Positions 11,253 through 33,627 of a stretch of 43,990 nt of DNA are shown here, piece after piece. Numbering within the stretch: the first letter of the stretch is position 1; the number at the start of each line of letters is the position of its first letter. The notes under the pieces are model-generated. The model made no database searches, had not been told where the DNA came from, and saw only the letters and a program-made list of their open reading frames with translations. The translations under genes were made by a program, and so were the position numbers. Source of the stretch: Verrucomicrobiota bacterium (GTDB lineage: Bacteria; Verrucomicrobiota; Verrucomicrobiia; Opitutales; T3Sed10-336); the NCBI GenBank assembly GCA_003565135.1, contig PXDC01000053.1:1-43990 (forward strand), written 5' to 3'.

Positions 11253-11381
11253 ACGTCCCTTTCGCCCGATGCCACCCGCCGCGTCCGTCCGCCTTGTTCC
11301 CCTTTCCACCGCAACCGGGACCGGGTTTTCGGAACGCCCGCCCGGCCAAGCCTGACCACCCTCCGACCCCCGACACCGACG

Positions 11382-13091: not shown

Positions 13092-13124
13092 GGCGATCCG
13101 GGCATGCCCCGCACCCCGTGTCCG

Positions 13125-13222: not shown

Positions 13223-13403
13223 AAGCTTGGCATCCCTGACCCCAAACACTACCGTCGCGGCACGATCAGTTTCACCGGACGCCGTCCCTTTCCACTCTCC
13301 CGGTGACGGCTTTCTCTCACGTCAAGTTGCCAGGACCCACCCCCCGGGTGGAGCCCTATCCGGGGCAACACGAACCTCAATCCGAACACCACTATTCTCT
13401 ATA

Positions 13404-13952: not shown

Positions 13953-14429
13953 ATGCCGCAACATGACGCAGGCCACCTGGCGCGCGCACTCGACCTGGCG
14001 ATCGAGCACTCGCGGGACGGGCGCCACGGTCCGTTCGGCGCGGTAGTGGCACGCGGAGAAAGCGTCGCAGGCGAGGGATGGAACCAGGTGGTCGCCGCGT
14101 GCGATCCGTCGGCCCACGCCGAAATCGTCGCTTTGCGGGACGCCGCCCGCAACCTCGACACCCACCTCCTGAGCGGGTGCACGATCTATTGCAGTTGCGA
14201 ACCCTGCCCCATGTGCCTGGCCGCGATTTACTGGGCGCGAATCGACCGGCTGGTATTCGCCTGTGGTGCGGACGACGCCGCCGCCGCGGGATTCGACGAC
14301 CGGAGAATCCTCCGTGAAATCCGGCGGGACTGGTCCGAGCGGGAAATTACCTGGCACCAGACCGGGCGCAAAGCCGGGCTCCGGGTATTCGAACGGTGGC
14401 GTCACAACCCGGACCGGGTCCCGTATTAG
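13953..14429 (+). CDS. Nucleoside/nucleobase deaminase, CDA superfamily (Bacillus GuaD-type guanine deaminase-like)
   Basis: GPFGAVV, DPSAHAEIVALR, SCEPCPMCLAAIYWARI and AAAAGFDD: the HAE and PCxxC zinc motifs with a GuaD-like C-terminus ending in Y. Confidence 0.88.
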   Translation: MPQHDAGHLARALDLAIEHSRDGRHGPFGAVVARGESVAGEGWNQVVAACDPSAHAEIVALRDAARNLDTHLLSGCTIYCSCEPCPMCLAAIYWARIDRLVFACGADDAAAAGFDDRRILREIRRDWSEREITWHQTGRKAGLRVFERWRHNPDRVPY

Positions 14430-14602
14430 ACCCGGCCCCGCCTCGGCGGCGTTTCGCCCCGGTGGGCCCGAATCCGGCCGGGGATCATGCCCTTCCGCCG
14501 CCGGGCGGAGCCCGGAACGTTCTTGAAAAAACGGCCGAGTGAACCTTCCATAACAAACGGACCGGTACCCGGCGGAAATTCGCCCGGCGGCCAGCCTTCA
14601 CC

Positions 14603-16288: not shown

Positions 16289-16306
16289 AATCCTCCCGCA
16301 CCCGAC

Positions 16307-16343
16307 AAAAAAAGCCCCGGGGCGTTACCGCCCCGGGGCTTTT
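16307..16343. terminator. Bidirectional intrinsic terminator
   Basis: A7-GCCCCGGGGCG-ttac-CGCCCCGGGGC-T4: a perfect 11-bp stem between convergent genes. Confidence 0.9.
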
Positions 16344-16366
16344 GAAAAACGACTGCAAACCGCGGA

Positions 16367-18580
16367 TCAATCCTCCACGTTCACCCGGTAAAAGCGACGC
16401 GGATACGTGGATACCTCTTCCTCGATGAACTCGGCGACGCCGGTACCGTCCGCTTCAATCGTCGCGAGCGGTTCCCAGTTCACCAGGTCCCCGGAAACCT
16501 CCAGGGCGAAGGAGGCGTTGGCTTCCCCGGTTACCTGCACGCGGACATTGCCGTCCGGCGTGCGGCCCGCGGCCACCTGCGGCAGCCCCACAAAAGCCGG
16601 GGGTCCGACTTCGGTCACCTCAAAATTATCGAGGTGGATTTCGTACGGGCCCGTCGGGTAGTTGTCATCACCATCCCTCACCGGCATGAACGCCAAGTGT
16701 TCAATGGTCCCGCGATCGCCGTCCAGTTCCCCGTCGGCGCCGACCCCGGCAAACGCCGTGACCAACTCGTTGGGTATGTCGAAATAAAGGGTCGTCCATT
16801 GCCCGGCCCGGACCAGCCGCGCTTTCGGCGGAACGCTGTCCGGGTCGATATCCCCGCCAATCCATTCGATGCCGTTATGGATGTTTCCATCGCCGGTTCC
16901 TCCGTCTTCACCGATACCGTCGTTCGCGGGACTCAATCCCGGGGCGTGGGTTTCGCGGACCGCAAGGGTTACATAAACATCCTCGTTCGTATGGATATCG
17001 AAGCGCAGGAATTGCTCAAAGCTGATGATCGGATTCCCCAGAGTGGCGACATTGAAGGTCGTCAGGCGCAACCACGGGTTGGCGAGGTCCGCGGCGAAAC
17101 TGAAGTTTACCAGCAGTGACTGGGCCCCCCAGTTCCCTTCCGGAACATCGTCCGTTACCTGGGCCAGGTTGGGAGCCGCCACATTGCCGCTGGTCGATCC
17201 GGAGAAACTGGGTGCCCGGAACATCACCGTCCCGTTGGCCGCGGGCAGCACAATATCCTCGAAGTCGGCAAAACGCACCCCGGTCGGCGCGGGCGCGATG
17301 ACCAGGGCCGCGCCTTCGGTCTCGCGGCTGCCGTGAGTATTGCCGACCTCCACCGAGTACCGGCCGGCGTCGGCCGGAACCGCCTCCGCAAGGGTCAGGG
17401 TGGCGTCGGTGGCACCGGAGATGCGTCCCCCGTCGGTCACCTCCTCACCGTCGCGGAACCACTGGTAATCGAAGGGCTCCTCGCCCTCGACCTCGACGGA
17501 AAACACCGCGTTCTCACCTTCCTCCAACTGAACGGTCCCGGGAACCTCCAGGAAAATAAAGGGCTGCACATCGATTTCGGCACCGCGGCTCAGGGTGGTC
17601 TCGCTGCCGTCGGAAACCGCCACCCGGTAGAGCCCGGCATCGTCGAATTCGGTACCGGTAATCGTTAGGGTGTCGCTGGTGGCACCGGAGACGCGGGGAT
17701 CGGAATCGGCGAGCTCGACGTTGTCCTTCAACCACTGATACGTAAGGGTTCCGGAACCCTCCGCGACCAAGCTCAACTCAAACTCGAAACCGACCGCCAC
17801 TTCGCGGCCCTCCGGATGCTCCACGATATCGATGGCGCGCGCCGCACCCGGATCCTGCGCCAGGTAGACATCGTCGTAATTGGCCGGAAAGTTCGCGGTG
17901 GAAAACGGTCCACCGATATTGACGATCTCCATGGAACCGCCGTTCCACGGGATAGCGGTCCCGTTGGGATCGAGCTCGCCGTTGACATAGATATCGACCG
18001 AGTTTTCAAAGATGACAAACCGGAATTCCTGCCAGCCTTCACTCCGCTCGGCGGCGAGCTGGATCCATCCGGGTCCGGCGAAGACGCGCGCCTGGTAACG
18101 GGTGACGTCGAATTCACCCACCTGCGTCTCGATCCAAAAGGGAGCCGCGAAGATGTTGCCGAACTCGGCGCGCACTTCGGCGTAGTTGGCGCCGGCCACC
18201 AGCACCTCCTCTTCCGCATCCTCGTCGAACTCGGTCGTCATGTGGTCGTATACGCGAAACTGGAAAACAATCGGTTCGTCATCGGTGGGATTGAGATCCA
18301 TGATCTCCCACCAGCCGCGGTTCACTCCGCCGGACATCAGGACACTCTGGTTTGTGGTCCCGTCCGGGTCCTGAGTCACCAGTGGCGCCAGGTCGGGATC
18401 CTGATCGGCCGGAAACAGGGGCCAATCGCCGGTTTCCTGGTCGCCCATCTGGGCGGTCGATGTGTAGCTTTCAAAATCGATATCGATAAATATCTGCTGC
18501 GCGTAAGCGGAAACGGCCGCCACCGCGAAGCACAGAACCAGCAGAGCCGGCAGTTTCAGAACCGAGGATTTGGTATTCAT
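16367..18580 (-). CDS. Secreted acidic multidomain protein: lectin-like beta-sandwich, two Ig (I-set-like) domains, a second beta-sandwich and a putative C-terminal sorting domain
   Basis: Signal peptide ending AVSAYA. Two Ig repeats (LTYQWLKD...DAGLYRVAVS; FDYQWFRD...DAGRYSVEVGN). LamG-like WQEFRFVI..VDIYVNG. C-terminus LEVSGDLVNW...RRFYRV. Confidence 0.8.
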   Translation of the reverse strand: MNTKSSVLKLPALLVLCFAVAAVSAYAQQIFIDIDFESYTSTAQMGDQETGDWPLFPADQDPDLAPLVTQDPDGTTNQSVLMSGGVNRGWWEIMDLNPTDDEPIVFQFRVYDHMTTEFDEDAEEEVLVAGANYAEVRAEFGNIFAAPFWIETQVGEFDVTRYQARVFAGPGWIQLAAERSEGWQEFRFVIFENSVDIYVNGELDPNGTAIPWNGGSMEIVNIGGPFSTANFPANYDDVYLAQDPGAARAIDIVEHPEGREVAVGFEFELSLVAEGSGTLTYQWLKDNVELADSDPRVSGATSDTLTITGTEFDDAGLYRVAVSDGSETTLSRGAEIDVQPFIFLEVPGTVQLEEGENAVFSVEVEGEEPFDYQWFRDGEEVTDGGRISGATDATLTLAEAVPADAGRYSVEVGNTHGSRETEGAALVIAPAPTGVRFADFEDIVLPAANGTVMFRAPSFSGSTSGNVAAPNLAQVTDDVPEGNWGAQSLLVNFSFAADLANPWLRLTTFNVATLGNPIISFEQFLRFDIHTNEDVYVTLAVRETHAPGLSPANDGIGEDGGTGDGNIHNGIEWIGGDIDPDSVPPKARLVRAGQWTTLYFDIPNELVTAFAGVGADGELDGDRGTIEHLAFMPVRDGDDNYPTGPYEIHLDNFEVTEVGPPAFVGLPQVAAGRTPDGNVRVQVTGEANASFALEVSGDLVNWEPLATIEADGTGVAEFIEEEVSTYPRRFYRVNVED

Positions 18581-21029: not shown

Positions 21030-22367
21030 ATGAAAACACGCAAACACAAACTCCTGGATTTTTCCCTGCTCATCCTGTTCCTTCTCGCCCTCGGCGGGCT
21101 GGGATTCGGCGTGTATCATTATTTCGGTCCGGGACCGGAAGGCGCGGTGGAGGCCGCCGCCCTCGAGGAGGCCGACCTGGTGCTCTACCTGAATATCCGC
21201 GACCTCGAAACCTCCGCGTTTTCGCGGGCCCTCGACCGCCCGGACGAAGTCGTGCCGCCGGAAGTCGCCCGTTTTCAGAACGCCCTGGGCATCCGCGAGG
21301 AGGACGTGCTGGAGGTCCTGTTCTCGGTGGGCGACATCGGGGCGTTTGCGGAAAACCGCCCGCACGAGGTAAGCATGGCCGGCGCCGTTCGCCTGGCCGC
21401 TGCGCTCGACCTCGACCGGATGGAAGCCGCTGTCAGGGAGACTCTCGAGGAAGGAGATCGAAACCGCCTGGAGCGAACGGAAATCGAAGGGCGCGACGTT
21501 CTTAACTTCCCGGTCCCCGACTCCCCCCTTCTCTTTGCCGCGACCGTCTTCGATCGCGGCGATAACGGCACCACCGTTTACTTTGGCGACGAAAACGCCC
21601 TCCGGGACACGCTGCGGAAGCTCGATTCCCGGCGGGAAAAACATTTGCCCGCCGGCATCCGCGAAGGGAGGGAATCGATTGAAAACGGCGATCACGGATG
21701 GCTTGTGGTCACCCTGAACGACCGGATGCAGGCGCAATTGCGGGAGGGGCTGGCGGCATCGCCGGTCCAACTGGGTCCGGCGGGCGAGGCCCTGGCGTCA
21801 CTGCGCAACGCCGGCATCGGCGTTCGGGCCAACCGCACGCTCGCCCTGCAACTGGTTTTCGGATTCGGGAGCGCGGGCGACGCGGACACCATCCGCGACG
21901 CGCTGAACGAAAACTTTCTTCCCCTGCTGCAGATGATGGCGGCCCAGCAGGTGGAGCGTCCCCCGGCGTTCCTGGAGGACCTCCGGGCCCGGACGCACGA
22001 CGCCACGCTGTCCTTCTCGTTTTCGCTTTCGGCCGAGGATATCAAGAGCGTTCAGGACGCCGTCCCGCAACCCCCTCAACCCCCGCTGACCGGCGAAGCG
22101 GCGGATACACCGCGGGACCCCGCCGAAACGGGGCGAACCGCCGCCCCCGAGCGCACCCCGACAGAGGACGGCAGTTGGCCCCGGTTAACCATCGAAGCCG
22201 TCCTCATGGAGAACCGCGAAGCCGTCATCAACGGCTCGGTAATCGCCGAGCGCGAGGAAATCGAGGGGGTTATCCTTTACGAAGTGGAGCCGCGCGGCGT
22301 TATCCTGCGTCGCAACCGCGAGTACCGATTCGTGCCCGTGGGTGAAACGGTGGAACCGGACAACTGA
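21030..22367 (+). CDS. Membrane-anchored hypothetical protein with a Pro-rich linker and a GspB (T2SS B)-like C-terminal domain
   Basis: Single N-terminal TM helix; QPPQPP linker. The C-terminal WPRLTIEAV...AVINGSVIAEREEIEGVILYEVEPRGVIL resembles the GspB/ExeB C-terminal beta domain. Confidence 0.6.
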   Translation: MKTRKHKLLDFSLLILFLLALGGLGFGVYHYFGPGPEGAVEAAALEEADLVLYLNIRDLETSAFSRALDRPDEVVPPEVARFQNALGIREEDVLEVLFSVGDIGAFAENRPHEVSMAGAVRLAAALDLDRMEAAVRETLEEGDRNRLERTEIEGRDVLNFPVPDSPLLFAATVFDRGDNGTTVYFGDENALRDTLRKLDSRREKHLPAGIREGRESIENGDHGWLVVTLNDRMQAQLREGLAASPVQLGPAGEALASLRNAGIGVRANRTLALQLVFGFGSAGDADTIRDALNENFLPLLQMMAAQQVERPPAFLEDLRARTHDATLSFSFSLSAEDIKSVQDAVPQPPQPPLTGEAADTPRDPAETGRTAAPERTPTEDGSWPRLTIEAVLMENREAVINGSVIAEREEIEGVILYEVEPRGVILRRNREYRFVPVGETVEPDN

Positions 22368-22383
22368 AACAACGGCAGAGGCG

Positions 22384-23091
22384 ATGGAGGTTACCAGCTA
22401 CGGTCAAAGCGATATCGGACGGGTGAGGGAGCGCAACGAGGACGCCTGCCTGCTCCAGGGGACCCGGTCGGTGTTCGCCGTGGCCGACGGGCTCGGGGGA
22501 TTGCCCGAGGGCCAACTCGCCAGCACCACCGCGCTCTCGATCCTGGAGCGGGAACTGGACAAACGCGGAATTCCCCGTGACTGGAAGCCGCTCTTCCACA
22601 AATTGAACGCGGAGATCGTGGTGCTGGGCCGGAGGCTCAGTCCCGAGACCGGAATCGGAACGACCCTGACCAGTGCGGCCCTGCGGGGCGACCGTCTGGA
22701 AATCACCCACGTCGGCGATTCGGCCCTCTACCGGTTCCGGCCCGAAGGAATGGAAAAACTCACCACCGACCACACCCTGGAGGAGGAAATCCGCAGCCGT
22801 CCCGACTACAACCCACTCATCCCCATTCCCCGCCGCCACAGTCACGTGCTGACCCGCTGCCTCGGGCAGATTGAAGACCTGGAAATCGACACCCGGGTCG
22901 AAACCGCCGTTCCCGGAGACCGTTTTATCCTTTGCACCGACGGTATCACCCTCGCCATTACACCCGAGGAAATCCACCCGCGGGTGCTCGCGGCGGCATC
23001 GCCGGAGGCCGTCGTGCGCGAATTGATCGCCTTGGCCAACGAGCGCGGCGGACGCGACAACGCCACGGCCGTGGCGATATTCGTCGATTAG
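22384..23091 (+). CDS. PP2C-family Ser/Thr protein phosphatase (PrpC/Stp1-like)
   Basis: SDIGRVRERNED, VADGLGG, GTTL, HVGDS, LTTDH, LCTDG and GGRDNAT. ATG 22384 is preferred over GTG 22342. Confidence 0.93.
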   Translation: MEVTSYGQSDIGRVRERNEDACLLQGTRSVFAVADGLGGLPEGQLASTTALSILERELDKRGIPRDWKPLFHKLNAEIVVLGRRLSPETGIGTTLTSAALRGDRLEITHVGDSALYRFRPEGMEKLTTDHTLEEEIRSRPDYNPLIPIPRRHSHVLTRCLGQIEDLEIDTRVETAVPGDRFILCTDGITLAITPEEIHPRVLAAASPEAVVRELIALANERGGRDNATAVAIFVD

Positions 23092-23141
23092 TCCCGGAGT
23101 TTTCCCTTGATCCCCCGACCGGTTCGCCGTGCAATCAAGCC

Positions 23142-24359
23142 ATGCGGAAATCCCTACTCTTTTCATTCGTCCCGGTCGTCCTGCTTCTGGCCCCGTCTCC
23201 GCTCCCCGGCGATGCCGTCACCGTTACCGTCGCCGCGGGAGACTGGGACCGGCACGGCACCCCGGTCACCTTTGAATTGCCCGAAGGAGCCCGCGACCAC
23301 CGCTCCCTGGAGGGGCCGGACGGTGAACGGATTCCCCTTCAGGTCGCCCCCGACGGAACCGCCGCGTTTATCCTGCCGCGACTCGCGGCCGGGAGCGACA
23401 TCACCTACCGCCTGGCCGGAACGACCCCCGCCCACGACGTGGCTCCATGGGTCGAAACGGCGAACGCCGACGGACGCGTACGGTTCTCACTTGCCGGTCG
23501 ACCCGCTCTTTACTACCAGGCGGAGGAACGCCCCTTTCCGCGCCCGGACATCAACCCGGTCCTGAAACGGGGCGGATTCCTCCATCCGGTCATCAGCCCC
23601 TCCGGCCGGACGGTCACCTCCAGTTACCCCCCGCGCCACACCCATCACCAGGGGATCTGGGCGCCGTGGACCCGGACCGAGTTCCAGGGGCGCAATCCCG
23701 ACTTCTGGAACATGCACGCCGAAACCGGCCGGGTCGAATTCGAGGAATTGGACCGGCACTGGAGCGGGCCCGTACACGGCGGTTTTCGATCCCGTCACCG
23801 CTTCGTGGACCTGTCCGCCGACGAACCGGTCGTCGCCTTGCGCGAGACCTGGGCGGTGCAACTCTACCAGACCGGCAACACCTCGGCACAACACCACCTG
23901 TTCGACCTCGAGATGGTGCAGAAGGCGGCTACCTCCGACCCGCTCAGACAAATCGAACACCACTACGGCGGCCTTGGCTTCCGGGGACACGACGACTGGA
24001 TGGGAGCGGAAAACACCCATTTTCTCACCTCGGAAGGCGTCACCGGCCGGCAGGAAGGCAACAACACACGAACGCGCTGGACTCATATCAGCGGCGACGT
24101 CGACGGCGAGCGGACCGGCATCGCCATCTTCTGCCACCCGGAAAATTTCCGATTTCCCCAGCCCGTGCGCCTCCACCCCCGCGAACCCTTCTTCTGTTAC
24201 GCGCCCTCCCAATTGGGAGACTGGGAAATCTCGCCCGGGGAACCCTATGTCGCGCGCTACCGGTTTGCGGTCATGGACGGGGAACCGGACCCGGCGGAAC
24301 TCGAACGCCTCTGGAACGACTACGCCCACCCGCCGGAAGTCCGGATCTCGACGCGGTGA
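23142..24359 (+). CDS. Exported DUF6807 ('PmoA family') protein, probably carbohydrate-related; not a methane monooxygenase
   Basis: Signal peptide MRKSLLFSFVPVVLLLA; family-type motifs GFLHPVISPSG, HTHHQGIW, DFW, YGGLGFRG and HPENFRFP. Confidence 0.75.
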   Translation: MRKSLLFSFVPVVLLLAPSPLPGDAVTVTVAAGDWDRHGTPVTFELPEGARDHRSLEGPDGERIPLQVAPDGTAAFILPRLAAGSDITYRLAGTTPAHDVAPWVETANADGRVRFSLAGRPALYYQAEERPFPRPDINPVLKRGGFLHPVISPSGRTVTSSYPPRHTHHQGIWAPWTRTEFQGRNPDFWNMHAETGRVEFEELDRHWSGPVHGGFRSRHRFVDLSADEPVVALRETWAVQLYQTGNTSAQHHLFDLEMVQKAATSDPLRQIEHHYGGLGFRGHDDWMGAENTHFLTSEGVTGRQEGNNTRTRWTHISGDVDGERTGIAIFCHPENFRFPQPVRLHPREPFFCYAPSQLGDWEISPGEPYVARYRFAVMDGEPDPAELERLWNDYAHPPEVRISTR

Positions 24360-24462
24360 TTGTTGATCGGTCCGAACCAGAGGCGAACCGAACCCCGCGT
24401 GACCGCCCGCTCCGCCGGTGTGCGGACGCACCCGGGATTTTCGAATTCTCCGCCCGCCGTCC

Positions 24463-25254
24463 ATGTCCCATCCCACCATCCTGATCACCAACGACGACGG
24501 GCTCGATACGGCCTTTCTGCGGCACCTCGCGGCCGCCCTGGCCGAAATCGGCCGGGTCTACACCGTGGCCCCGGCAACAGAGCAGAGCTGGACCGGAAAG
24601 GCGATGAGCCGCCATCGGGAGGTCGCGGTGCGACCGGTCGAGGGCCACGCCGGTCCGGCCTGGGCGGTGGAGGGAACGCCCGCCGACTGCGTCAATATCG
24701 CGGTGGGACACCTCCTTCCCCGCCGTCCGGACCTCGTCGTCGCCGGGATCAACATCGGGTTCAACGCCGGGCTGCCGCTCATTCTCAGTTCCGGGACCGT
24801 GGCGGCCGCCCTGGAGGGCGCCCTCCTCGGCCTTCCCGCGCTGGCCCTCTCGCAGCACCTGCCGCCGGGGACCTTTAAATCCCTGAAATCGAAGCCCGGC
24901 GCGCTCGACGGCGAGATGCAAAAGTCGCTCGCCGCCGCCGCCGCCTTCGCCACCCGGCTGGCCCGAACGCTCGCCGGCCGGGGGAATCCCCGCAACGTGG
25001 TTCACAACGTCAATTTCCCGTTCCCGGTTCACCCGGAGACCCCGTGCAAAAAAACCGTCCCGGCCCGTTTCAACCTCGGGAGCCTGTACCGGCGATCCTC
25101 ACACAACCGCTTTCACTTCCGGTTGAATCTGCCGGAAGAGGGCCCCCGGGAGGGCCTTTCGGACATGGACTGCCTCAGGAAGGGATGGATCAGTCACGGC
25201 CTGCTCGATTTCGGCGCGCTCGGCAGCCCGGGTTTTTTGCACGAAACCGACTGA
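24463..25254 (+). CDS. surE: 5'/3'-nucleotidase SurE
   Basis: ILITNDDG, VAPATEQS, GTPADCV, GINIGFN and SSGTVAAALEG; ATG at 24463. Confidence 0.93.
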   Translation: MSHPTILITNDDGLDTAFLRHLAAALAEIGRVYTVAPATEQSWTGKAMSRHREVAVRPVEGHAGPAWAVEGTPADCVNIAVGHLLPRRPDLVVAGINIGFNAGLPLILSSGTVAAALEGALLGLPALALSQHLPPGTFKSLKSKPGALDGEMQKSLAAAAAFATRLARTLAGRGNPRNVVHNVNFPFPVHPETPCKKTVPARFNLGSLYRRSSHNRFHFRLNLPEEGPREGLSDMDCLRKGWISHGLLDFGALGSPGFLHETD

Positions 25255-25370
25255 ATGGGCTGGCCATTCTTCCATCGCGGCACCAAATAAAAGGCGGGGT
25301 AAAACGCGTCTAACTCACGGATGATGCCCATCTTCCGCATCGAAACGCGAAACAACCGCCCAGACTTTTC

Positions 25371-26603
25371 ATGCAATCTTCAAAACGACGAGCCGTCATC
25401 ACCGGAATTGGAGTCATTGCCCCCAATGGTTCCGACCTCAATCTATTCTGGACCAGTTTGTGCGCCGGGCGAAGTGCCGCCGCCTTCATCAGCCGCATCG
25501 ACACCTCCGCCCTGCCGAGCAAAGTGGCCTGCCCCCTGCGGGGATTCAATCCCGCCGATTACCTCGCCCCGGCGACGGCCAATCACTACCCGCCCGCCAT
25601 CCAATACGCGATCGCCGCCGCCAGGAACGCCCTGGATGACGCCGCATTCGATTCCGCCTCCGTCGAACCGGACCGCCTCGCAATCGTGGCGGGAACCTCC
25701 CAGCAACTTCATCGCTCCGCCGAACTGCCGGCAAACGGCGATCGGCCCCGCGACACCCTTTCGATTCTCATCAACGGGCAGACCGGAAGCGGAGGCTCCG
25801 CCATCGCCCACGAGTTGGGATTAGCCGGGCACGCCCTCAGCTTATCCACCGGTGCTTCCACCGGCGTCGACACCCTGGCCCAGGCGCTCGCCCTGATCCG
25901 CGACGACGACGTCGATATCGCCCTGGCCGGAGCGGCGGAAACACCGATAACTCCCGGCTTCTGGGGTTTGTTCTGCGCGTCGAACGACATGAGTCGCGAG
26001 TGCGAGGAACCGGCGCGAGCGATGCGCCCTTTTGCGGCGAACCGGGACGGATTCATCCTCGGCGAGGGTGCGGCATTCCTGGTGGTCGAGGAGTTATCCT
26101 CCGCCCTTCGCCGGGGAGCTCCTATCTACGCCGAAATCGCCGGGTTCGGCCGAAGCTTCGACTGCAACGGATCAAACGGAACCGGCGGCACCGGGTTCCG
26201 CTCACTGGGAAAGGCCCTGCACCGCGCGGGGGTCGCCCCGCACGAAATCGATTATCTCAATGCCAACGGCACAGCGACCGCGGAAAACGATCGGGCGGAA
26301 TCCGTGGCGATCAAGCAAACATTCGGACAGCACGCGAAACGCCTCCAGGTGAGCGCGACCAAACCGGTCACCGGCCACTGGACCGGAGCGGCCGGACCCC
26401 TGGAAGCGGCGATCTGCGCACTGGCAATACGGCACCGCACCATTCCCCCCACCATCAACCTCACCGCTCCCGACAGCGAATGCGACCTCGACTACGTCCC
26501 GCTTGCGTGCCGCGGCTATCCGGTTAACGCCGCGGTCAGCCTGAACGCCGGCTTCGACGGCAGCAACACCTGCCTGGTATTCAAAAAATTCATCCATTTC
26601 TGA
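25371..26603 (+). CDS. FabF-like beta-ketoacyl-ACP synthase homolog, predicted catalytically inactive
   Basis: Colinear with FabF (RRAVITGIG, RPF..RDGFILGEGA, GAPIYAEI.GFG, TKPVTGH, IPPTINL, CDLDYVP). The catalytic Cys is Ala162 (STGAST) and the first His is Asn299 (NANGT). Confidence 0.88.
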   Translation: MQSSKRRAVITGIGVIAPNGSDLNLFWTSLCAGRSAAAFISRIDTSALPSKVACPLRGFNPADYLAPATANHYPPAIQYAIAAARNALDDAAFDSASVEPDRLAIVAGTSQQLHRSAELPANGDRPRDTLSILINGQTGSGGSAIAHELGLAGHALSLSTGASTGVDTLAQALALIRDDDVDIALAGAAETPITPGFWGLFCASNDMSRECEEPARAMRPFAANRDGFILGEGAAFLVVEELSSALRRGAPIYAEIAGFGRSFDCNGSNGTGGTGFRSLGKALHRAGVAPHEIDYLNANGTATAENDRAESVAIKQTFGQHAKRLQVSATKPVTGHWTGAAGPLEAAICALAIRHRTIPPTINLTAPDSECDLDYVPLACRGYPVNAAVSLNAGFDGSNTCLVFKKFIHF

Positions 26604-26620
26604 TCTCTCAAACTCCAAGG

Positions 26621-26647
26621 TTGCGCTTTGTGAATAAATTGTATAAT
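26621..26647 (+). promoter_or_regulatory. Possible sigma70 promoter upstream of the kinase-fadL-kinase genes
   Basis: TTGCGC (26621-26626), 15-nt spacer, perfect TATAAT (26642-26647) in an AT-rich gap; the spacer is shorter than optimal. Confidence 0.45.
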
Positions 26648-26677
26648 ACCAAACCCGGCTTCTTCTAAACGCCCGTA

Positions 26678-28693
26678 ATGTTCCATATTCTCGTCATAAC
26701 TGAGGACAACGGTTTTACCGATTCGCTTAAAGCGCTGCTCCCTGAAAACGAGTTTCGGCTCCACCCCCTCCCCTCCCCGAATAAAGCCCAATCGATTCTC
26801 AAGACCCCGCTTCCCGACGCCTGCCTCATCGACGCCGATCTGCCGAACCTGTCCGCGGTGAACGCCCTGGAGGAGGTGCGCCGCCATGCTTCCGCCATCG
26901 GCGTTTTTCTCTGCACCCGGGACACGAATCCCATCTGGGAAGAGGACGCCTATCTCAAGGGCGCCGATTTCATATTCCGCAAACCGCTCCGTTCCGCCCT
27001 GCTCCACCGGATTCTCACCCGGCACCTCCGCTCCCCCGCAAAAAAGCCGGCCTGGACCCATCGCCCCGAAACCGGACCGGCCCCGGCTCCCGGAACCTTT
27101 CGTCACGGCGGAACACTGCCCGGCTCGGCCCTGGAGATCATGCGGGATTTCTCCCGCATCCTCTCCTATTCGCTCGACCTCAAATCCTTCGTCCACCAGT
27201 TCATTCTCAAGCTTCGCGAAATCATCAGCGTGAACCGGGTCGCCATCCTGCTGCGAAAACCCGACCTGCCCCTCCCCGGCCTGTCCGCCGCCGAGAGGGA
27301 GGACGACGCGCTCGAATGCATCTGCTCGATCGGAATCGAAGCGGACCTTTTCCAATACTTCCAGATCAACCTCTCCAGTGGTATCGGCGGCATGGTCGCC
27401 CGCAGCGGACAAATCCTCAAGGCCGATTACGAAGCCAACCTGTTTTCGGACGAGAACTACGAGATCAACCGGGAATTCGAACTGCTCGGGTGCGAGGTGG
27501 CCATACCTATTGTCGATCGGGAGCGCTGCCTCGGGATCGCGCTGATCGGAGGCCGATTGACCGGAACGCGGTTTGCGGACGACGAACTGCAACTGCTCTT
27601 TCACCTCATGGAGGAGCTCGGGCTCGCCATCCGCAACAACTGGCTCCACGAGGAACTGGCCAGCCATCACGAACTGATTTCCGATGTCATCGCCCAGTTC
27701 AAAAGCGGTTGCCTGGTGATGTCGCCGGAATTATCCGTCCTCCACGCCAATCCCGCCCTGCTGGAATTCATGCAGAAGGCACCCGGCGATTCGGTGTCCT
27801 TCTCCGACCTGCCTCCCAGCATCGCCTGCCAGTTGTACGAGGTCGTCCAAAAAGGAGAAGACATTCCGCCCTTCATGTTCGACGGCTTTCCCGGCGACGA
27901 CCGGATATTCCGGATCTCCATATTTCCTCTGCAGACAGGACGGCTGGAGGCGGGATCGGCCACCATGCTGCTGATGGAGGACTTTACCCAGGTGGAAAAG
28001 GCCAAGAAGATCGAAGTCGAGGCCCAAAACGCCCGGACCGTCGCCCTCATCGCGGAACGTTTCGCCCACGAGATCCGCAATGCCCTCGTCCCCCTGAGCA
28101 CACACCACCAACTGCTGGAAACCGATTTTGACAAGGACGCCTTCCGGAACTCTCTGGACAAGACCATGGACCGCCAGATTCGCCGCATCTCGCGCTTCGC
28201 GGACCAGATGATGCTCCTTTCCCAGAGCCGAAACGGCACCGATCACGGCGGTTCCCTGCAGGAACTTCTCGAACAGGCATTCTCCGAAGCCCTCAATTTC
28301 TGCGGCCGGGACGGAACCCTCCAGTACGACCCGGAATTCGACGACTGCAAAATCCGCGGCGATCTATCGACCCTGAAACACGCCTGCATGGAGATCCTCC
28401 TCAACGCCCTGCAATCGGGCTCCGAGCAGGCGAACATCGTGGTCACGAACCGATTCGAAAACGACGACAAGGGACGGAATGTCGTCGCCATCGATTTTTT
28501 CGACCACGGGGGCGGTTTTTCCGAAGAAGCCGCGGAGGAGGCATTAAAGCCTTTTTTCACCACCCGCAACGTCGGTGTCGGCCTCGGGCTCACCGTGGCG
28601 GAAAAAATTCTGCGAGCCCACGGAGGTTCGCTTGAAATCACTCGAAACAAGACAAAGAAAAAACACGTCCGCGCGATCCTTCCCCTGGCATGA
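26678..28693 (+). CDS. Soluble hybrid histidine kinase, REC-GAF-PAS-HisKA-HATPase
   Basis: Atypical receiver (ILVITED, LIDADLP, CT, RKPL), GAF (VAIPIVDRERCLGIALIG...FADDELQLL), PAS-like (SGCLVMSPELSVLHANPA), H-box FAHEIRN, LLNALQ, DHGGGF, PFFTT and GVGLGL. Confidence 0.9.
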   Translation: MFHILVITEDNGFTDSLKALLPENEFRLHPLPSPNKAQSILKTPLPDACLIDADLPNLSAVNALEEVRRHASAIGVFLCTRDTNPIWEEDAYLKGADFIFRKPLRSALLHRILTRHLRSPAKKPAWTHRPETGPAPAPGTFRHGGTLPGSALEIMRDFSRILSYSLDLKSFVHQFILKLREIISVNRVAILLRKPDLPLPGLSAAEREDDALECICSIGIEADLFQYFQINLSSGIGGMVARSGQILKADYEANLFSDENYEINREFELLGCEVAIPIVDRERCLGIALIGGRLTGTRFADDELQLLFHLMEELGLAIRNNWLHEELASHHELISDVIAQFKSGCLVMSPELSVLHANPALLEFMQKAPGDSVSFSDLPPSIACQLYEVVQKGEDIPPFMFDGFPGDDRIFRISIFPLQTGRLEAGSATMLLMEDFTQVEKAKKIEVEAQNARTVALIAERFAHEIRNALVPLSTHHQLLETDFDKDAFRNSLDKTMDRQIRRISRFADQMMLLSQSRNGTDHGGSLQELLEQAFSEALNFCGRDGTLQYDPEFDDCKIRGDLSTLKHACMEILLNALQSGSEQANIVVTNRFENDDKGRNVVAIDFFDHGGGFSEEAAEEALKPFFTTRNVGVGLGLTVAEKILRAHGGSLEITRNKTKKKHVRAILPLA

Positions 28694-29919
28694 ATAAAAA
28701 TTTCCTTCGTTTGGTCACCGTCGCAACCCTAACCGTCATTCCCGTCGTGACCGCATCCGGCCTGGGCTTCCGCCTGGTGGACATGGACACACATGCGTCG
28801 GGGCGGGGAAACGCCTACGCAGCCACCGCCGACAGCCCCGCCGCCATCTATTATAACCCGGCCGGAATCACCCAGGTACACGTCCCTTCGATTCAGGCCG
28901 GCGTCTACGCCATCCATTTCGACGTCGATTACCGCAGCCGCCAGACCGGCGAACGAACGACCAACGACACCAGCATCCAGCCGGTCCCCAACGCCTATTT
29001 CACCCTTCCCATCGAAACCACCCCTCTCACCTTCGGCATCGGCGCTTACGCACCCTTCGGGCTGGTCAACGACTGGCCCGACGACACCGATTTCCGGACC
29101 GTGGCCACCCGGTCCACCCTGGAATTCCGGCAGATAACGCCGGTTATCGCCTGGGAAATCAACCCGCAGCTATCCATCGGTGGCGGCCTCACCATCAACG
29201 ATGCCCAGCTCGACCTGCGTCAGGCCCTCTTTCCCCCGGGCCATCCCCTGGCCAACGGCGACGAATTCCACTTCGACGGGCGCGACCAGTTTTTCGGGTA
29301 CACCCTCGGAGTGCGCTGGGCACCCGCCCCGCGTCACGCTTTCGGCCTCGCCTACCGAAGTTCATTGCGGTCCAACCTGAAAGGCACCGGCACCACCCGT
29401 CTGCCCGCTGCGGGAATCGATTCCCGGGAGGACGCCGAGCTCAATCTCCCCTTTCCCCGGACCGCCGTCATCGGGTATTCTTTTCGTCCCAGTGAGGCCT
29501 GGAATTTCGAGGCGAACCTCGACTGGACCGACTGGTCCGTCCTCGATTCGGTCACGATGCGGCTGGAGAACAGCGGAAACCAGGACCTCGAGTTCAACTG
29601 GGAGGAAAGTATCGTTTACAAGGCCGGGGTCACACGGTATTTTGAAAACAATTACCACCTTAGCGTCGGCTACATGTTCAGCGAGAATTCGGTCCCCAGC
29701 AGTTATTTCAATCCCGCCGTGCCGGACTCCGACCGGCACCTGGGGGCTCTGGGCGTCGGCTGGCGGGACGAACACCTCAGTTGGAGCCTGGGCTACCAGT
29801 TCGGCTACTCACCGACCCGTCGCGTCCGCGGCAGCGACGGGGGAGATGAGGGACCGGCCGACGGGAATTATCGAACGATCGTCAACGCGGTCTCGGCCTC
29901 CGTGGGAATAGCATTTTAG
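28690..29919 (+). CDS. FadL/OmpP1/TodX family outer-membrane channel for long-chain fatty acids or other hydrophobic compounds
   Basis: Signal peptide, then GLGFRL...SGRGNAYAATADSPAAIYYNPAG (NPA hatch motif), APFGL, WTDWS, PAVPDSDR and a terminal Phe. The start overlaps the kinase stop (ATGA). Confidence 0.92.
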   Translation: MNKNFLRLVTVATLTVIPVVTASGLGFRLVDMDTHASGRGNAYAATADSPAAIYYNPAGITQVHVPSIQAGVYAIHFDVDYRSRQTGERTTNDTSIQPVPNAYFTLPIETTPLTFGIGAYAPFGLVNDWPDDTDFRTVATRSTLEFRQITPVIAWEINPQLSIGGGLTINDAQLDLRQALFPPGHPLANGDEFHFDGRDQFFGYTLGVRWAPAPRHAFGLAYRSSLRSNLKGTGTTRLPAAGIDSREDAELNLPFPRTAVIGYSFRPSEAWNFEANLDWTDWSVLDSVTMRLENSGNQDLEFNWEESIVYKAGVTRYFENNYHLSVGYMFSENSVPSSYFNPAVPDSDRHLGALGVGWRDEHLSWSLGYQFGYSPTRRVRGSDGGDEGPADGNYRTIVNAVSASVGIAF

Positions 29920-29925
29920 TCCATT

Positions 29926-31149
29926 ATGACGGAATACACCAAGGAAACGCTCCTGATAGTCGACGACGAAGAGGGTCCCAGGGAATCGCTGAAGATCGTC
30001 TTCGAGGAGCGTTACCATGTACTCCTCGCCCGTTCCGGTGAAGAGGCGGTGACCGTTGCCCGCCAGACTCCGCCCCACACGGTCATCCTCGACATCCGTA
30101 TGGCGGGAATGTCGGGGATCGAAGTGCTCAAGTCCCTCAAAGAGATCGACCCCCACACCGAGGTCATCATGCTGACCGCCTACGAAACCCTGGAGACGGC
30201 GCGGCAAGCGCTTCGTTACGGCGCCCGGGATTACATTGGAAAACCGTTCAATGTAAAAGCCATGCGCACGGCGGTGGAAAGCGCGATGGAACACCGGCGA
30301 CTCTCCCTGAACATCGCCAGTTCGGTCGGGCAGCTCGATTCGCTTCAATCGGACCTGGAGAAGCTGATGATGCAGGAAGAGATGGCCCGCACGTCCTCAC
30401 AGATCTACGCCGGGGTCCTTCACGACATCAACAATCCGCTCACCATAATCAGGGGCTACGTGGACCTCCTGATGCACCGGCTGGCCGAAATGTCGCGGTT
30501 GACCGGAAACGACCTGGAGGAAGTCCGGGAAAACATGAATACGGTGGCCCAACAGGTTCGCGTCTGTTGCTCGATTTCGAACCGACACCTGGAGCTCATC
30601 CGCCGGGAATCCCCGGAGGGCCAACTGGTTTCGGTCAACCTGATCCTGCAGGACCTCCAGGACCTGATCAAGGTCCACCCGGCGGTCCGCGAATCCATGG
30701 TCGAAATCACCCCCCTGGAAGAGGACACATCGGTTTTTATTCACAGTTCCGAGCTCATGCAGATTCTGCTGAACCTCGTGACCAACTCCCTGCAAAATTC
30801 ACCCGCTTCCCGCAAGGTTACCGTACAGGCCGCCTTGCTGCCTTCGTTGCCGTCGGCCGCAAAATTCACCAACGGCCCGGAGGAAAGGATCATCAACGGC
30901 GAAATCCTGGACCCGAAGCGCTCCTATGTGGCGGTCACGATTCGCGACCAGGGAAAGGGGATACCCGCCGATATCATCGAAGAAGTGTTTGAACCGTATT
31001 TCACTACGAGGAAGGAGGACAACGGAACGGGGCTGGGACTGGCGATCGTCTCCCGGCTTGTGACGCGTAATCGCGGGGCCATCCACCTCCGGACAAAAGT
31101 AGGTGAAGGTTCCTCATTCACGGTATATCTTCCCCGGGAAAGCGAGTGA
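29926..31149 (+). CDS. Soluble hybrid histidine kinase, REC-HisKA-HATPase
   Basis: Canonical receiver (IVDDEE, ILDIRM, LTAY, KPF), H-box VLHDINNPL, NLVTNS, DQGKGI, EPYFTT and GTGLGL. Confidence 0.92.
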   Translation: MTEYTKETLLIVDDEEGPRESLKIVFEERYHVLLARSGEEAVTVARQTPPHTVILDIRMAGMSGIEVLKSLKEIDPHTEVIMLTAYETLETARQALRYGARDYIGKPFNVKAMRTAVESAMEHRRLSLNIASSVGQLDSLQSDLEKLMMQEEMARTSSQIYAGVLHDINNPLTIIRGYVDLLMHRLAEMSRLTGNDLEEVRENMNTVAQQVRVCCSISNRHLELIRRESPEGQLVSVNLILQDLQDLIKVHPAVRESMVEITPLEEDTSVFIHSSELMQILLNLVTNSLQNSPASRKVTVQAALLPSLPSAAKFTNGPEERIINGEILDPKRSYVAVTIRDQGKGIPADIIEEVFEPYFTTRKEDNGTGLGLAIVSRLVTRNRGAIHLRTKVGEGSSFTVYLPRESE

Positions 31150-31264
31150 GGCGCCCGCCGCCGCCCCGGCCCGGCCGGGTGATTTTCAGCAATTACTTGA
31201 AAATGAGGCGTTTTTAGCGCAAGCTGCACCATCACCGAACCCGTATGTAATAAAGGAGACTGTC

Positions 31265-31585
31265 ATGTTGGATATGTTTAAGAAAGCCGTATACGCCGGG
31301 ATCGGCGCCACTGTCACCACCAAGGAACACGTGCAGAAGATGCTCCACGAAATGGTGGAGCAGGGAAAAATCACCCGCCAGGAGGCCGAAAAAATGGCCG
31401 AAAAAATTGTCGAGGAAAGCCGCAAGGAGTTTGAGTCGACAACCAACGAAATCAACCGAACCCTGCGGGAATGGTGGCAGAAGGAGAAGCCGGTCAGTGA
31501 GGAGGAACTGCACAAACTCGAGAGCCGGGTAAAATCCCTCGAAGTCAAACTCGCCAACCTGACCCGCAAGGTAAAGGGGGAATAG
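31265..31585 (+). CDS. Phasin / PHA granule-associated (PhaF/PhaI-like) coiled-coil protein
   Basis: MLDMFKKAVYAGIGA...EMVEQGKITRQEA...EELHKLESRVKSLE; RBS AAGGAG at 31253-31258. Confidence 0.75.
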   Translation: MLDMFKKAVYAGIGATVTTKEHVQKMLHEMVEQGKITRQEAEKMAEKIVEESRKEFESTTNEINRTLREWWQKEKPVSEEELHKLESRVKSLEVKLANLTRKVKGE

Positions 31586-31656
31586 CCCCCGGGGGTTCGG
31601 GGCGAGGGGTGTCCGACTCCCGGTGCCGCCGCGCCACGATTCCGGTCGCTTTTTTT

Positions 31657-32604
31657 TCACACCCGCCGCCTCAAAGCGGCGACCATTCCTCGGAAATCCG
31701 CAGGGGGCGGAGCCGAGAGCTGCATGGCCTCACCGGTCAAGGGATGGCGGAACCCTATCCGCTCCGCGTGAAGCATGATCCGCGGCGGCATCGGCCCCTC
31801 GCGGGCCGCGTCCCGGTACCCGTAAACGGCATCGCCCAGGAGCGGATGCCCGCGTGAACTCAGGTGCACGCGAATCTGGTGGGTTCGGCCCGTCAGGATC
31901 CGGCAGCGCAGCAGGCTCGCTGTTTTGCCGTAGACCTCCACCCGCTCCCACCGGGTGCAGGCCGGACGTCCCCGCCCTTCCGGGCATACCGCCATTTTGT
32001 GACGGTGAACCGGATGCCGCCCGATGGAATCGACGATCGAGCCGGAGAGCAACTCCGGGACGCCGAACACCAGCGCGAGGTAATCCTTGGTCACCTCCCG
32101 GTCCCGGAACTGTCGCGCGAGTTCGCGGTGGGCGGGATCGGTCTTGGCGACGACGATCAGGCCGGAAGTTTCCCGATCCAGCCGGTGGACAATGCCGGGA
32201 CGTTCGACCCCGCCGATCCCGCTGAGCCCGCCACGGCAATGAGCCAGCAACGCGTGCACCAGGGTGTCCTCGCCGGTCCCGGCGCCGGGATGCACCACCT
32301 GTCCGCTCGCTTTGTTGATCGCGAGAATGGCCGCATCCTCGAACAGGACCTCCAGCGGGATCGGTACGGGCTTTATGGCCGAAGGTTTCACCGCCGGCAG
32401 GGAAAACCTCAGAACATCGCCCCCGGACACGGATTCCCGCTTTCCGACCGCGATCCCCGCCCTCAATACCCGTCCCGCGTCAAAAGCCCGTTGCAGCGCC
32501 GTCCGGCTGAACCCGGGAAATCCCGCCGCCAGAACCTTGTCCGCCCGCTCGCGGTGAATCCCCTCGGGAACCGTAAAACTGTACTCGGTCGGTGTGTCAG
32601 GCAT
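31657..32604 (-). CDS. rluD: RluA/RluD family 23S rRNA pseudouridine synthase
   Basis: N-terminal S4-like domain, NKASGQVVHP, RPGIVHRLDRETSG, TGRTHQIRVH and GDAVYG. Confidence 0.88.
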   Translation of the reverse strand: MPDTPTEYSFTVPEGIHRERADKVLAAGFPGFSRTALQRAFDAGRVLRAGIAVGKRESVSGGDVLRFSLPAVKPSAIKPVPIPLEVLFEDAAILAINKASGQVVHPGAGTGEDTLVHALLAHCRGGLSGIGGVERPGIVHRLDRETSGLIVVAKTDPAHRELARQFRDREVTKDYLALVFGVPELLSGSIVDSIGRHPVHRHKMAVCPEGRGRPACTRWERVEVYGKTASLLRCRILTGRTHQIRVHLSSRGHPLLGDAVYGYRDAAREGPMPPRIMLHAERIGFRHPLTGEAMQLSAPPPADFRGMVAALRRRV

Positions 32605-32697
32605 AGTTTAACCCCCCGCGGCCCGAGGATCCCAACCCGGGGAACCCGTCGCCGGCCGGACGGGAAACCGGGGGACCGGCGAAGTTATCCGGCCTCC

Positions 32698-33627
32698 TCA
32701 CCCTTTGACGGAACCGACCGTCAGTCCGGAGAGGAAGAATCGCTGTCCGACCAGGAAAAGGACAATCACCGGGACCAGCATCAGCAGCGACGCGGCCATC
32801 ATCAGGTGCCACTCGGTTGAATACTGTCCCTGGAATGCCTGCAGCCCCACCGGCAAGGTGCGGAGATATTCCTGGTTGGTCGCCACCAGCGGCCAGAGGA
32901 AGGCGCCCCAAACCGTCATAAACGTCAACAGCGTCAGTGCCGTCAGCCCCGGAATGGAAAGCGGGAGGATGACCTTGGTAAAAATTTTCCAGTGCCCGCA
33001 GCCGTCGATCTTGGCGGCTTCATCCAGTTCCTTGGGGAGGCTGATGAAGAATTGCCGCAGGAGAAACGTACCGTAGGCCGAGAACATTCCGGGAGCGATC
33101 AGGGCAAAATAGGAATCGAGGCCGGCCAGACGGCCGATGCCGGTCGCGTCGGCACTGGTTCCGAGGTAGCGCAGGCTCATCCAGTCCACCACCGGAACAG
33201 CGATCTCCAGCCCCTCCGGAATCAGCTTCATGAGAATGAAGTTCGGAATCATGATGACCAGCCCGGGAATCATCATGGTCGCCAGGTAAGCGAGAAAAAG
33301 CTTATCCCGCCCCGGCCAGCGGATCCGGCTGAAAGCATAGGCGGCCATGGCGCTGGTCAAGACCTGGCCGGTGGTGGCGACAACCGCGACAAAGAGGCTG
33401 TTGATGTAGTAACGCAGGAAGGGAACGATCTCCCAGACGATGATAAAATTCTCCCAGCGCCAGTTCTGGGGGATCACCATCTCCCAGAAATTGTCGGTCG
33501 CCCGCATGGCGGCTTCCGGCGGAGCAAGAGCGGTGGTGATCATAAACGCCAGGGGAAGCAGACAGGTGATGCCCCCGAGGATAAGGGGAATGTGCCAGAG
33601 CGATTGCCAACGGGTGTCCTTACTCAT
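32698..33627 (-). CDS. Carbohydrate ABC transporter permease (MalG/UgpE-like)
   Basis: NSLFVA, AAYAFSRI, FLLRQFF, EAA loop (ELDEAAKIDG) and FLWPL. Confidence 0.93.
   Translation of the reverse strand: MSKDTRWQSLWHIPLILGGITCLLPLAFMITTALAPPEAAMRATDNFWEMVIPQNWRWENFIIVWEIVPFLRYYINSLFVAVVATTGQVLTSAMAAYAFSRIRWPGRDKLFLAYLATMMIPGLVIMIPNFILMKLIPEGLEIAVPVVDWMSLRYLGTSADATGIGRLAGLDSYFALIAPGMFSAYGTFLLRQFFISLPKELDEAAKIDGCGHWKIFTKVILPLSIPGLTALTLLTFMTVWGAFLWPLVATNQEYLRTLPVGLQAFQGQYSTEWHLMMAASLLMLVPVIVLFLVGQRFFLSGLTVGSVKG

Follow-up and report, generated by a model that had tools for sequence, protein, structure and literature searches.

The window analyzed here, i.e. the whole 43,990-nt stretch of contig PXDC01000053.1 from a Verrucomicrobiota bacterium (assembly GCA_003565135.1), encodes at positions 25371-26603 (+) a FabF-fold protein, for which we use the working name KSx (P0001) and which is almost certainly a pseudo-enzyme. 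The gene of this ketoacyl synthase (KS) paralog lies directly upstream of a gene for a cytoplasmic histidine kinase (HK) with receiver (REC) and GAF domains (REC-GAF-HK). As judged from sequence and genomic setting, KSx probably serves signaling rather than lipid synthesis, and the more specific proposal that KSx, which its gene position ties to the REC-GAF kinase, acts without catalysis as an accessory of a lipid-related phosphorelay has in our judgement an even chance of being correct.

The open frame of KSx starts with ATG and encodes 410 aa with both ketoacyl-synthase domains of a thiolase-fold KS (Pfam PF00109, N-terminal, 1.8e-35; PF02801, C-terminal, 6.5e-28). In a PDB search, FabFs, headed by Bacillus subtilis FabF as the top solved relative (4ls5, E = 1.6e-85), and the act KS-alpha (2.4e-72) ranked far above chains of the chain-length factor (CLF) type, such as 9s5h_C (5.4e-48), which we take to be the mutated subunit of an anammox pair. 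An AlphaFold model built on a 26-row alignment retained the KS fold (mean pLDDT 83, pTM 0.88; TMq 0.87 against FabF structures), the only internal segments of low confidence being residues 111-128, the former docking region 2 for acyl carrier protein (ACP), and residues 265-274 in gating loop 2 (pLDDT <50). KSx scored 345.4 bits on the NCBIfam fabF model TIGR03150 and 339.6 on the PRK07314 model, below the respective cut-offs of 493.75 and 387, whereas live members of its own family, i.e. those with Cys or Ser at the nucleophile position, the two triad histidines, both loops of the gate and the patch that docks ACP, reached 447-472 bits on the fabF model. KSx is 46-56% identical to live members of its family and 36-41% identical to FabFs, with 40% identity to the housekeeping FabF of its own genome.

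The loss of FabF function is apparent from an alignment of the KSx family with Escherichia coli FabF, the sequence of which provides the residue numbering. KSx carries Ala162 (codon GCT, 25854-25856 (+), in the string L-S-T-G-A-S-T-G) at the position of the nucleophile Cys163, and Asn299 (codon AAC, 26265-26267 (+), in L-N-A-N-G-T) at the triad residue His303, turning the NAHGT motif into NANGT; Lys331 and His336, the equivalents of E. coli Lys335 and His340, are kept within ATKPVTGHW (26361-26378 (+)). The resulting triad, Ala162/Asn299/His336, is not that of FabF, and neither the docking patch nor the gating loops match those of FabF. Gating loop 2 (E. coli 265-275) is replaced and shortened to D264-G275 (26160-26195 (+)), which reads DCNGSNGTGGTG and lacks both His268 and Thr270; the histidine of the FabF DAYH motif is this His268 of gating loop 2 and not a triad residue. 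In gating loop 1, the oxyanion-hole turn GFGG (399-402) has become GFDG, with Asp396 at Gly401 (26550-26561 (+)). The amide of Phe400 in the GFGG loop forms half of the oxyanion hole and the basic residues K65, R68, K69, R127 and R206 dock ACP (PMC7138838), loss of either docking region cripples FabF, and decarboxylation is driven by both histidines jointly (PMC9006962). All five docking residues are replaced in KSx, with A68, N71 and H72 for K65, R68 and K69 in the former docking region 1 (25572-25586 (+)), Pro for R127 and N205 for R206. The orthologue from a second genome (G002; 65% identical) has the same Ala and Asn, the same loss of loop 2 and the same G401D exchange, with LDG for FDG (Leu at Phe400), and these features are therefore not a sequencing artefact. 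Read from its sequence, KSx is thus shown to be incapable of canonical ACP binding and of the Claisen condensation catalyzed by FabF. An earlier sequence-only reading of this gene, which had pointed out the two triad exchanges (Cys to Ala at Ala162 and His to Asn at Asn299), the replaced DAYH loop, the GFDG turn and the retained Lys331 and His336 within a full-length 410-aa frame, agrees in each of these details with the codon check and the alignment, the DAYH loop corresponding to gating loop 2.

The degeneration of KSx is shared by its closest relatives. A search of 5.8 billion proteins returned P0002 (65% identity) and P0003 (64%) as nearest to KSx, followed by a series at 46-56%, and the source labels of the relatives, where given, were Verrucomicrobia, Limisphaerales or Rariglobus MAGs (metagenome-assembled genomes). 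In a 50%-cluster library only three clusters rose above ordinary FabF and polyketide synthase (PKS) matches. The family appears patchy, because only two of 301 genomes sampled across the phylum, the source genome (G000) and G136, matched KSx at E <= 1e-100. Likewise, a profile search of genome contigs with the family alignment A1, which gives generic search patterns, yielded only L039, L043 and L044 as family members among the best 80 loci, the rest being ordinary FabFs, and a search of metagenome contigs with the degenerate-clade alignment A4 yielded no degenerate-clade member among the best 80 loci and only L141 and L142 from the family. By triad and loop state, the family sorts into live Cys-His-His enzymes, Ser-His-His enzymes and a degenerate group of seven distinct sequences, all of which lack His268 and all five ACP-docking residues. 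Within this group the triads differ, with Ala/Asn/His in KSx of the window and G002, Ala/His/His in P0003, Cys/Asn/His in G004 and G011, and Cys/His/His in P0011 and P0012. Asn at position 68 occurs in 7 of 7 sequences, the equivalents of Lys335, His340, Asp311, Glu314, Thr307 and Phe229 are invariant, and that of Phe400 is present in 6 of 7. In addition, KSx and 6-7 of the 7 clade members retain the equivalents of the pocket residues Phe202, Phe229 and Phe400, and at the back gate smaller residues or a gap take the place of Ile108.

In a quick IQ-TREE phylogeny of 54 rows, with the FabF of the source genome and the KSs of contigs C287 and C249 as the root, the degenerate sequences (eight rows, seven of them distinct), which stem from the two GTDB genera g1 and g3, formed one clade (SH-aLRT 100), whose sister group (SH-aLRT 99) consisted of Cys-His-His enzymes from the same GTDB family; the 566-aa KS of contig C124 was left out and no CLF sequences were among the rows. 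The enclosing branches (SH-aLRT 98-99) place KSx inside the clade of KSs from modules in which the KS gene lies between an ICMT-like methyltransferase gene and a gene for a kinase with a HisKA_7TM region (7TM-HK). The stem of the degenerate clade has a length of 0.58, and paths from the shared node measure 1.1-1.55 to degenerate tips compared to 0.28-0.49 to the live sisters, corresponding to an evolution about 3-4 times faster than in the live sister clade. From the distribution of states we infer a single loss of the ACP dock and of loop 2 before the split of genera g1 and g3, a subsequent origin of C163A in one subclade and, finally, at least two origins of H303N.

The dead form is nevertheless maintained by selection. 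NG86 estimates of the ratio of nonsynonymous to synonymous substitution rates (dN/dS) for KSx were 0.195 between G004 and G011 (87% aa identity, dN 0.069-0.070, dS 0.355-0.358) and 0.22 between the window and G002 (65% aa identity, dN 0.26-0.27, dS ~1.2), and Fisher tests of nonsynonymous versus synonymous differences in these pairs gave p = 4e-21 and 8e-33. For comparison, values of 0.07-0.12 were obtained for the kinases and of 0.15-0.23 for the RluD-like gene in the same pairs, and of 0.14 for FadL and 0.185 for SurE between the window and G002. Pairwise maximum likelihood estimates were unstable at saturated dS (e.g. dS 26; REC-HK omega 0.70 with dS 0.25), and the inference of selection rests on NG86 and on the unsaturated G004/G011 pair. 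Since both compared pairs are already degenerate, selection acts on the dead form, and the fold and core of KSx are under purifying selection and not decaying (dN/dS ~0.2). Moreover, none of the seven degenerate-clade sequences from the two genera contains a stop codon or frameshift. Of the 127 alignment columns in which live members show a conservation of 90% or more, the degenerate clade has preserved 75 without any change or variation. Some 22 others are lost, with the losses concentrated at the ACP dock and in loop 2, around the Cys, at side-pocket position 310 and in the vicinity of loop 1. The sequence-only reading had taken the protein for an intact and selected pseudo-enzyme, and the closest homologs speak for this view: degeneration is common to the orthologues, the nearest of which do not all keep Cys and His, and dN/dS (0.20-0.22; p = 4e-21 and 8e-33) is far from 1.

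The genomic context of live and dead family members was compared in 11 other genomes of the same GTDB family, in G136 from another family of the same order, and on three contigs of named Verrucomicrobiota MAGs. Live KS genes usually lie in a module with the order (FadL), ICMT/PEMT-like membrane methyltransferase, KS, 7TM-HK, REC-GAF-(PAS)-HK, FadL and REC-HK. Among 12 live loci in all, a 7TM-HK gene followed directly downstream of KS at 9 of the 11 with at least 800 nt of downstream sequence, with a gap of 0-45 nt (the coding regions abut in G136 and G007), and was not found downstream of KS in L044 (819 nt available) or L142. On the other side, where 10 loci offered 600 nt or more of upstream sequence, an ICMT-like gene directly preceded KS at 6 and was not found in this place in L039, L043, L141 and L142. 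The modules are represented by L119 (G136, 9407-18010), L032, L035, L036, L030, L031, L039 and L043, and their junctions are tight or overlapping. A full-text literature search, with subscription journals outside its scope, returned no description of the ICMT-KS-7TM-HK module or of such a dead KS.

A side observation on the live members concerns their nucleophile, which is Ser, combined with His-His, in 29 of the 43 live rows aligned. These Ser-type proteins (P0013-P0027, P0029, P0030, P0033, P0035-P0040, P0121 and P0122), for which the KS loci include L035 7282-8526, L037 4199-5239, L044 7980-9218 and L141 1064-2302, have retained His-His-Lys as well as the two gating loops and the docking patch for ACP, and they are found in the ICMT-KS-7TM-HK context just as the Cys forms are. 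The existence of a natural, stand-alone FabF-like enzyme of the Ser type suggests a chemistry other than classical condensation.

In the degenerate loci, KSx lies directly upstream of REC-GAF-HK in 4 of 4 cases (window, G002, G004 and G011), at a distance of 74 nt in the window to ~95 nt, with REC-HK further on. An ICMT-like gene or a 7TM-HK was found at none of the four loci, and genome searches of G000, G002, G004 and G011 revealed no ICMT-like homologue and, for the 7TM kinase region, only matches of 19-23% identity in G000 (23%), G002 and G011 and none in G004. The order of genes on the plus strand of the window is PP2C phosphatase, DUF6807, SurE, KSx, REC-GAF-HK, FadL/TodX, REC-HK and a phasin-like gene, followed by a pseudouridine synthase gene on the opposite strand. 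REC-GAF-HK, FadL and REC-HK are thus present downstream of KSx as in the live modules, and the ICMT-like gene upstream and the 7TM-HK downstream are missing. The kinase with REC-GAF-HisKA-HATPase architecture (Pfam) is encoded at 26678-28693 (+), and its stop codon is overlapped by the start of the gene for a FadL/TodX-family outer-membrane channel (28690-29919 (+); Pfam Toluene_X 8.3e-55; NCBIfam FadL 3.1e-20, under cut-off), the G002 orthologue of which is 75% identical. The REC-HisKA-HATPase kinase (29926-31149 (+); Pfam), in which a receiver domain is fused to the kinase, is conserved at all KSx-type kinase loci and at all full modules that reach this position. The operon ends with a small phasin-like protein (31103-31585 (+), true start probably after 31103; Pfam Phasin 1.1e-5, under cut-off) that is conserved in G002, G004, G011, G001 and G008. 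SurE (24418-25254 (+); Pfam, NCBIfam), the upstream flank and a synteny marker outside the module, is found just upstream of KSx in the window and precedes the full module of G136 by ~3 kb, which suggests that the KSx locus is a reduced descendant of the full module.

These observations would be in line with an origin of KSx from a live KS (Cys/Ser-His-His) in an ICMT-KS-7TM-HK-REC-GAF-HK-FadL-REC-HK module. This lineage lost gating loop 2 and all ACP-docking residues before the g1/g3 split, with the triad residues decaying piecemeal afterwards, and the methyltransferase and 7TM kinase, putatively the signal-making or membrane-sensing half of the module, are missing from the same genomes that carry the degenerate KS. 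KSx would then most likely hold a hydrophobic or acyl ligand in its remaining pocket and/or contact the kinase and thereby modulate it. The survival of a pocket is supported by the retained Phe202, Phe229 and Phe400 equivalents and by the smaller residue or gap at Ile108, and in the window and G002 the ligand could come in via the co-encoded FadL. The sequence-only reading had likewise proposed a pseudo-enzyme kept for binding or regulation; the regulatory part of this proposal gains support from the adjacency to REC-GAF-HK at 4 of 4 loci.

The co-occurrence of KS paralog and kinase points in the same direction. Both were present in 10 genomes (G000-G004, G007, G008, G010, G011 and G136), and both were not found in G005, G006 and G009 (88-92% complete). 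None of the genomes examined carried a live and a dead KS copy together, and no live family copy was found in the four KSx genomes (G000 82%, G011 67% complete). Since none of the genomes examined has the REC-GAF kinase without a KS paralog, be it live or dead, the role proposed for KSx may also be exercised by live enzymes. A stronger version of the proposal, which we put forward tentatively and consider rather less likely to be right than wrong, is that the REC-GAF-HK/REC-HK phosphorelay depends on the KS-fold protein as an obligatory subunit or co-sensor whose action is independent of catalysis, with live and dead forms being interchangeable and the dead form reporting lipid imported by FadL to the kinases. 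Such an obligatory co-sensor would explain why exactly one kind of KS paralog is found per kinase-bearing genome examined and why the dead form has been under selection after the loss of the methyltransferase and 7TM kinase.

Several observations weigh against a role of KSx in the phosphorelay. In G001, which belongs to genus g1 as does the window, and in G008, which belongs to genus g3 together with G004 and G011, an orthologous kinase locus without KSx comprises REC-GAF-HK, REC-HK, the phasin-like gene and RluD, with DUF6807 and SurE upstream in G001, where the gap from SurE to the kinase is 99 nt and KSx is absent between the two. KSx was hence lost twice as the kinase locus persisted, and the kinases therefore need no KS encoded at that locus. 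Both of these genomes carry live modules elsewhere (L030 and L031 in G001; L037 in G008), and the resulting either/or pattern of live and dead KS speaks for the proposed role; it comprises, however, only two independent contrasts, which agree in direction and are suggestive but not statistical. Moreover, contig C501 of the source genome, 3.3 kb in length, carries a second, divergent pair of GAF-HK (35% identical) and FadL (40% identical) genes that runs off its end (L129 453-3327), which, together with the 82% completeness of this genome, makes an unassembled live module in G000 possible. FadL is absent from the loci of G004 and G011. Among the live members, L142 has neither a kinase nor a methyltransferase neighbor and L044 has no 7TM-HK within 819 nt downstream, and the link between KS family and module is therefore not a strict one. 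The dN/dS of KSx, which is above that of the kinases (0.07-0.12), and its long branches are also expected of a slowly relaxing gene. Finally, binding of KSx to a kinase or ligand is proposed on indirect grounds, from gene order and residues. A complex prediction for KSx and kinase residues 1-450 (REC-GAF-PAS) with alignments A3/A2, which gave scores of 0.02 and 0.14 against a mark of 0.32, speaks neither for nor against such a contact.

The long branches and the losses in G001 and G008 could also mean that KSx is a relic without function, kept by co-transcription or by signals for the downstream kinases and lost lineage by lineage, which we regard as unlikely. Its absence from an otherwise syntenic locus, branches 3-4 times longer than those of the live sisters, the piecemeal decay of the triad, with H303N arising at least twice and C163A confined to one subclade, and the disappearance of the methyltransferase and 7TM-kinase partners would all fit such a history. 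However, a dN/dS of ~0.2 between pairs that were already degenerate (p = 4e-21 and 8e-33), an intact frame in 7 of 7 sequences from two genera, and the continued invariance of 75 of 127 live-conserved columns argue against a gene without function, as does the fact that the flanking ICMT-like and 7TM-HK genes were lost and yet the KS gene between them was kept. Selection might alternatively maintain a residual or new chemistry, in which Lys331, His336 and Asn299 catalyze, for instance, the decarboxylation or hydrolysis of a substrate, either free or linked to CoA, in a reaction that requires neither the Cys nor ACP. The invariant equivalents of Lys335, His340, Asp311, Glu314, Thr307 and Phe229 (with Phe400 in 6 of 7), the Cys-His-His triad still present in the clade members P0011 and P0012, and the tolerance of the family for a Ser nucleophile, which hints that the ancestral reaction was maybe not a classical condensation, are compatible with this idea. 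We nevertheless hold it to be very improbable, given that the two histidines drive decarboxylation (PMC9006962) and His303 is Asn in KSx, that G401D lies in the oxyanion-hole turn and loop 2 has disappeared, that the ACP dock is erased, and that the triad varies among close relatives (A/N/H, A/H/H, C/N/H and C/H/H) and is therefore unlike a conserved active site.

A third possibility is that KSx heterodimerizes in the manner of a CLF with the housekeeping FabF or another KS and tunes chain length or activity. KS-fold proteins are obligate dimers for which inactive partners are known, as described in a preprint (bioRxiv 10.64898/2026.05.19.726425), the KS/CLF pairs of type II PKS and the anammox pair amxFabF2/amxFabFmut provide parallels, and the source genome does hold a FabG-ACP-FabF cluster (C159) and two KS-ACP clusters (C287 and C249). 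In contrast, there is no KS or ACP beside KSx in any of the four loci, the tree derives KSx from stand-alone live enzymes in kinase modules and not from CLFs, and CLF-type chains score far below FabF in the PDB search, all of which makes a partnership of this kind highly doubtful. In addition, because the inactive subunit supplies most of the ACP contacts in KS/CLF pairs (PMC9006962) and all five docking residues checked are lost in KSx, a KSx-FabF heterodimer in a CLF-like arrangement looks unlikely. The separate idea that KSx pairs with a live relative from its own family was rejected, no live copy being found in the four KSx genomes (G000 82%, G011 67% complete). A non-catalytic function in the neighboring phosphorelay is thus the reading that we prefer for KSx.

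Regarding the surroundings of KSx, neither an ACP (PP-binding) domain nor a second KS was present among the window frames scanned against Pfam (20 + 21, some overlapping), as the sequence-only reading had stated for the adjoining genes, and no KS or ACP was found beside KSx at the three orthologous loci (G002, G004 and G011). Predicted promoters and terminators in 22000-32800 were at shuffle level (2 vs 1.4 and 13 vs 13.2), and the datasets listed over 24400-31600 of the window comprised no RNA and only DNA runs (best share 0.29). The source assembly is a MAG of 538 contigs that is 82% complete. Its contig C159 holds a normal FabG-ACP-FabF cluster and contigs C287 and C249 hold two KS-ACP-FAD-oxidase clusters, all unrelated to KSx. 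The latter two (L137 4512-7512 and L138 3-2106, respectively) are closely related, non-identical clusters of KS, ACP and amine-oxidase-like FAD enzyme genes, C287 additionally encoding a trans-2-enoyl-CoA reductase; these KSs keep Cys-His-His, with Asp at the loop-2 His position and GMLG for GFGG, and the pair could stem from two strains in the MAG or from a true duplication. Elsewhere, the window is rich in signaling genes, among them, at 8334-13091 (+), the gene of a 972-aa GlnD-like uridylyltransferase and, after it, that of a 569-aa histidine kinase with a double GAF. A 445-aa protein without Pfam or NCBIfam match (21030-22367 (+)) overlaps at its end the start of the PP2C-type phosphatase gene (22342-23091 (+)), and both are kept in G002 (53% and 68% identical, respectively). 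On the minus strand, 3442-5364 encodes a 640-aa protein with five helicase-associated repeats (HA, PF03457) and no other recognized domain, and 16367-18580 a 737-aa protein with immunoglobulin I-set/Ig_3 domains, the G002 copy of which is 53% identical. The gene for the phenylalanyl-tRNA synthetase beta chain, pheT, appears split into two overlapping frames (38969-40465 (-) and 40294-41424 (-)), one of which holds part of the B3_4 domain at residues 221-317 and the other the remainder at residues 1-73, reflecting either a frameshift or an assembly error.

Compared to known systems, KSx shares with FabF/KASII the fold, the length and the Lys335, His340, Asp311 and Glu314 equivalents, but differs from it in the absence of Cys163, His303, loop 2, the GFGG turn and the ACP-docking residues and in scores below the model cut-offs; moreover, the real FabF of this genome (C159) lies beside acpP/fabG and KSx does not. 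With the CLFs (KS-beta) of type II PKS, including the ishigamide and anthraquinone CLFs, it has in common the inactive fold of an elongating KS. CLFs, however, adjoin an active KS-alpha and an ACP, whereas KSx has no partner gene, and CLFs usually carry Gln at the Cys position, which is Ala162 in KSx. The sequence-only reading, which had set KSx apart from standard CLFs, is upheld by this Ala in place of Gln, by the lack of a neighboring KS or ACP and by the nesting of KSx with FabF-like stand-alone KSs of its own taxonomic family; no grouping with CLFs emerged, in a tree without CLF rows and in a PDB search that ranks FabFs higher. CLFs, furthermore, supply most of the ACP contacts (PMC9006962), and KSx has no docking patch. 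The anammox protein amxFabFmut is likewise a FabF homologue with a mutated triad, in which Val or Thr stands in for Cys, and Asn, Glu or Cys for His, and it forms a heterodimer with the active amxFabF2, which is encoded just downstream in a cluster with its own ACP (bioRxiv 10.64898/2026.05.19.726425). KSx differs in that no active paralog is adjacent or co-encoded, and none of its own family is found in the genome. Its closest likeness is to the live KSs of the ICMT-KS-7TM-HK family, with which it shares its place in the tree, the same REC-GAF-HK and REC-HK, FadL (in the window and G002) and a nearby SurE (in G136), and from which it differs by the loss of the ICMT-like gene and the 7TM kinase gene between which these are mostly found.

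This apparently undescribed parent module has as its possible chemistry a lipid signal or membrane-lipid homeostasis, and the series from live through partly degenerate to dead forms amounts to a set of natural separation-of-function variants. To our knowledge, inactive KS homologues have so far been known only as partners of active KSs in biosynthetic clusters, i.e. as CLFs and anammox FabFmut. KSx, in contrast, has no active KS partner and an erased ACP dock, yet it is conserved as the first gene of an operon of two-component and FadL genes. The arrangement in the window, where the gene of a FadL/TodX-family channel adjoins those of soluble multi-domain histidine kinases, resembles that of TodX/TodST, and systems of this type are not known to include a KS-fold component. 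If KSx indeed binds a ligand or modulates the kinase, it would represent a pseudo-enzyme route from lipid synthesis into signal transduction, and the dead form would be a fatty-acid-synthase enzyme turned receptor.

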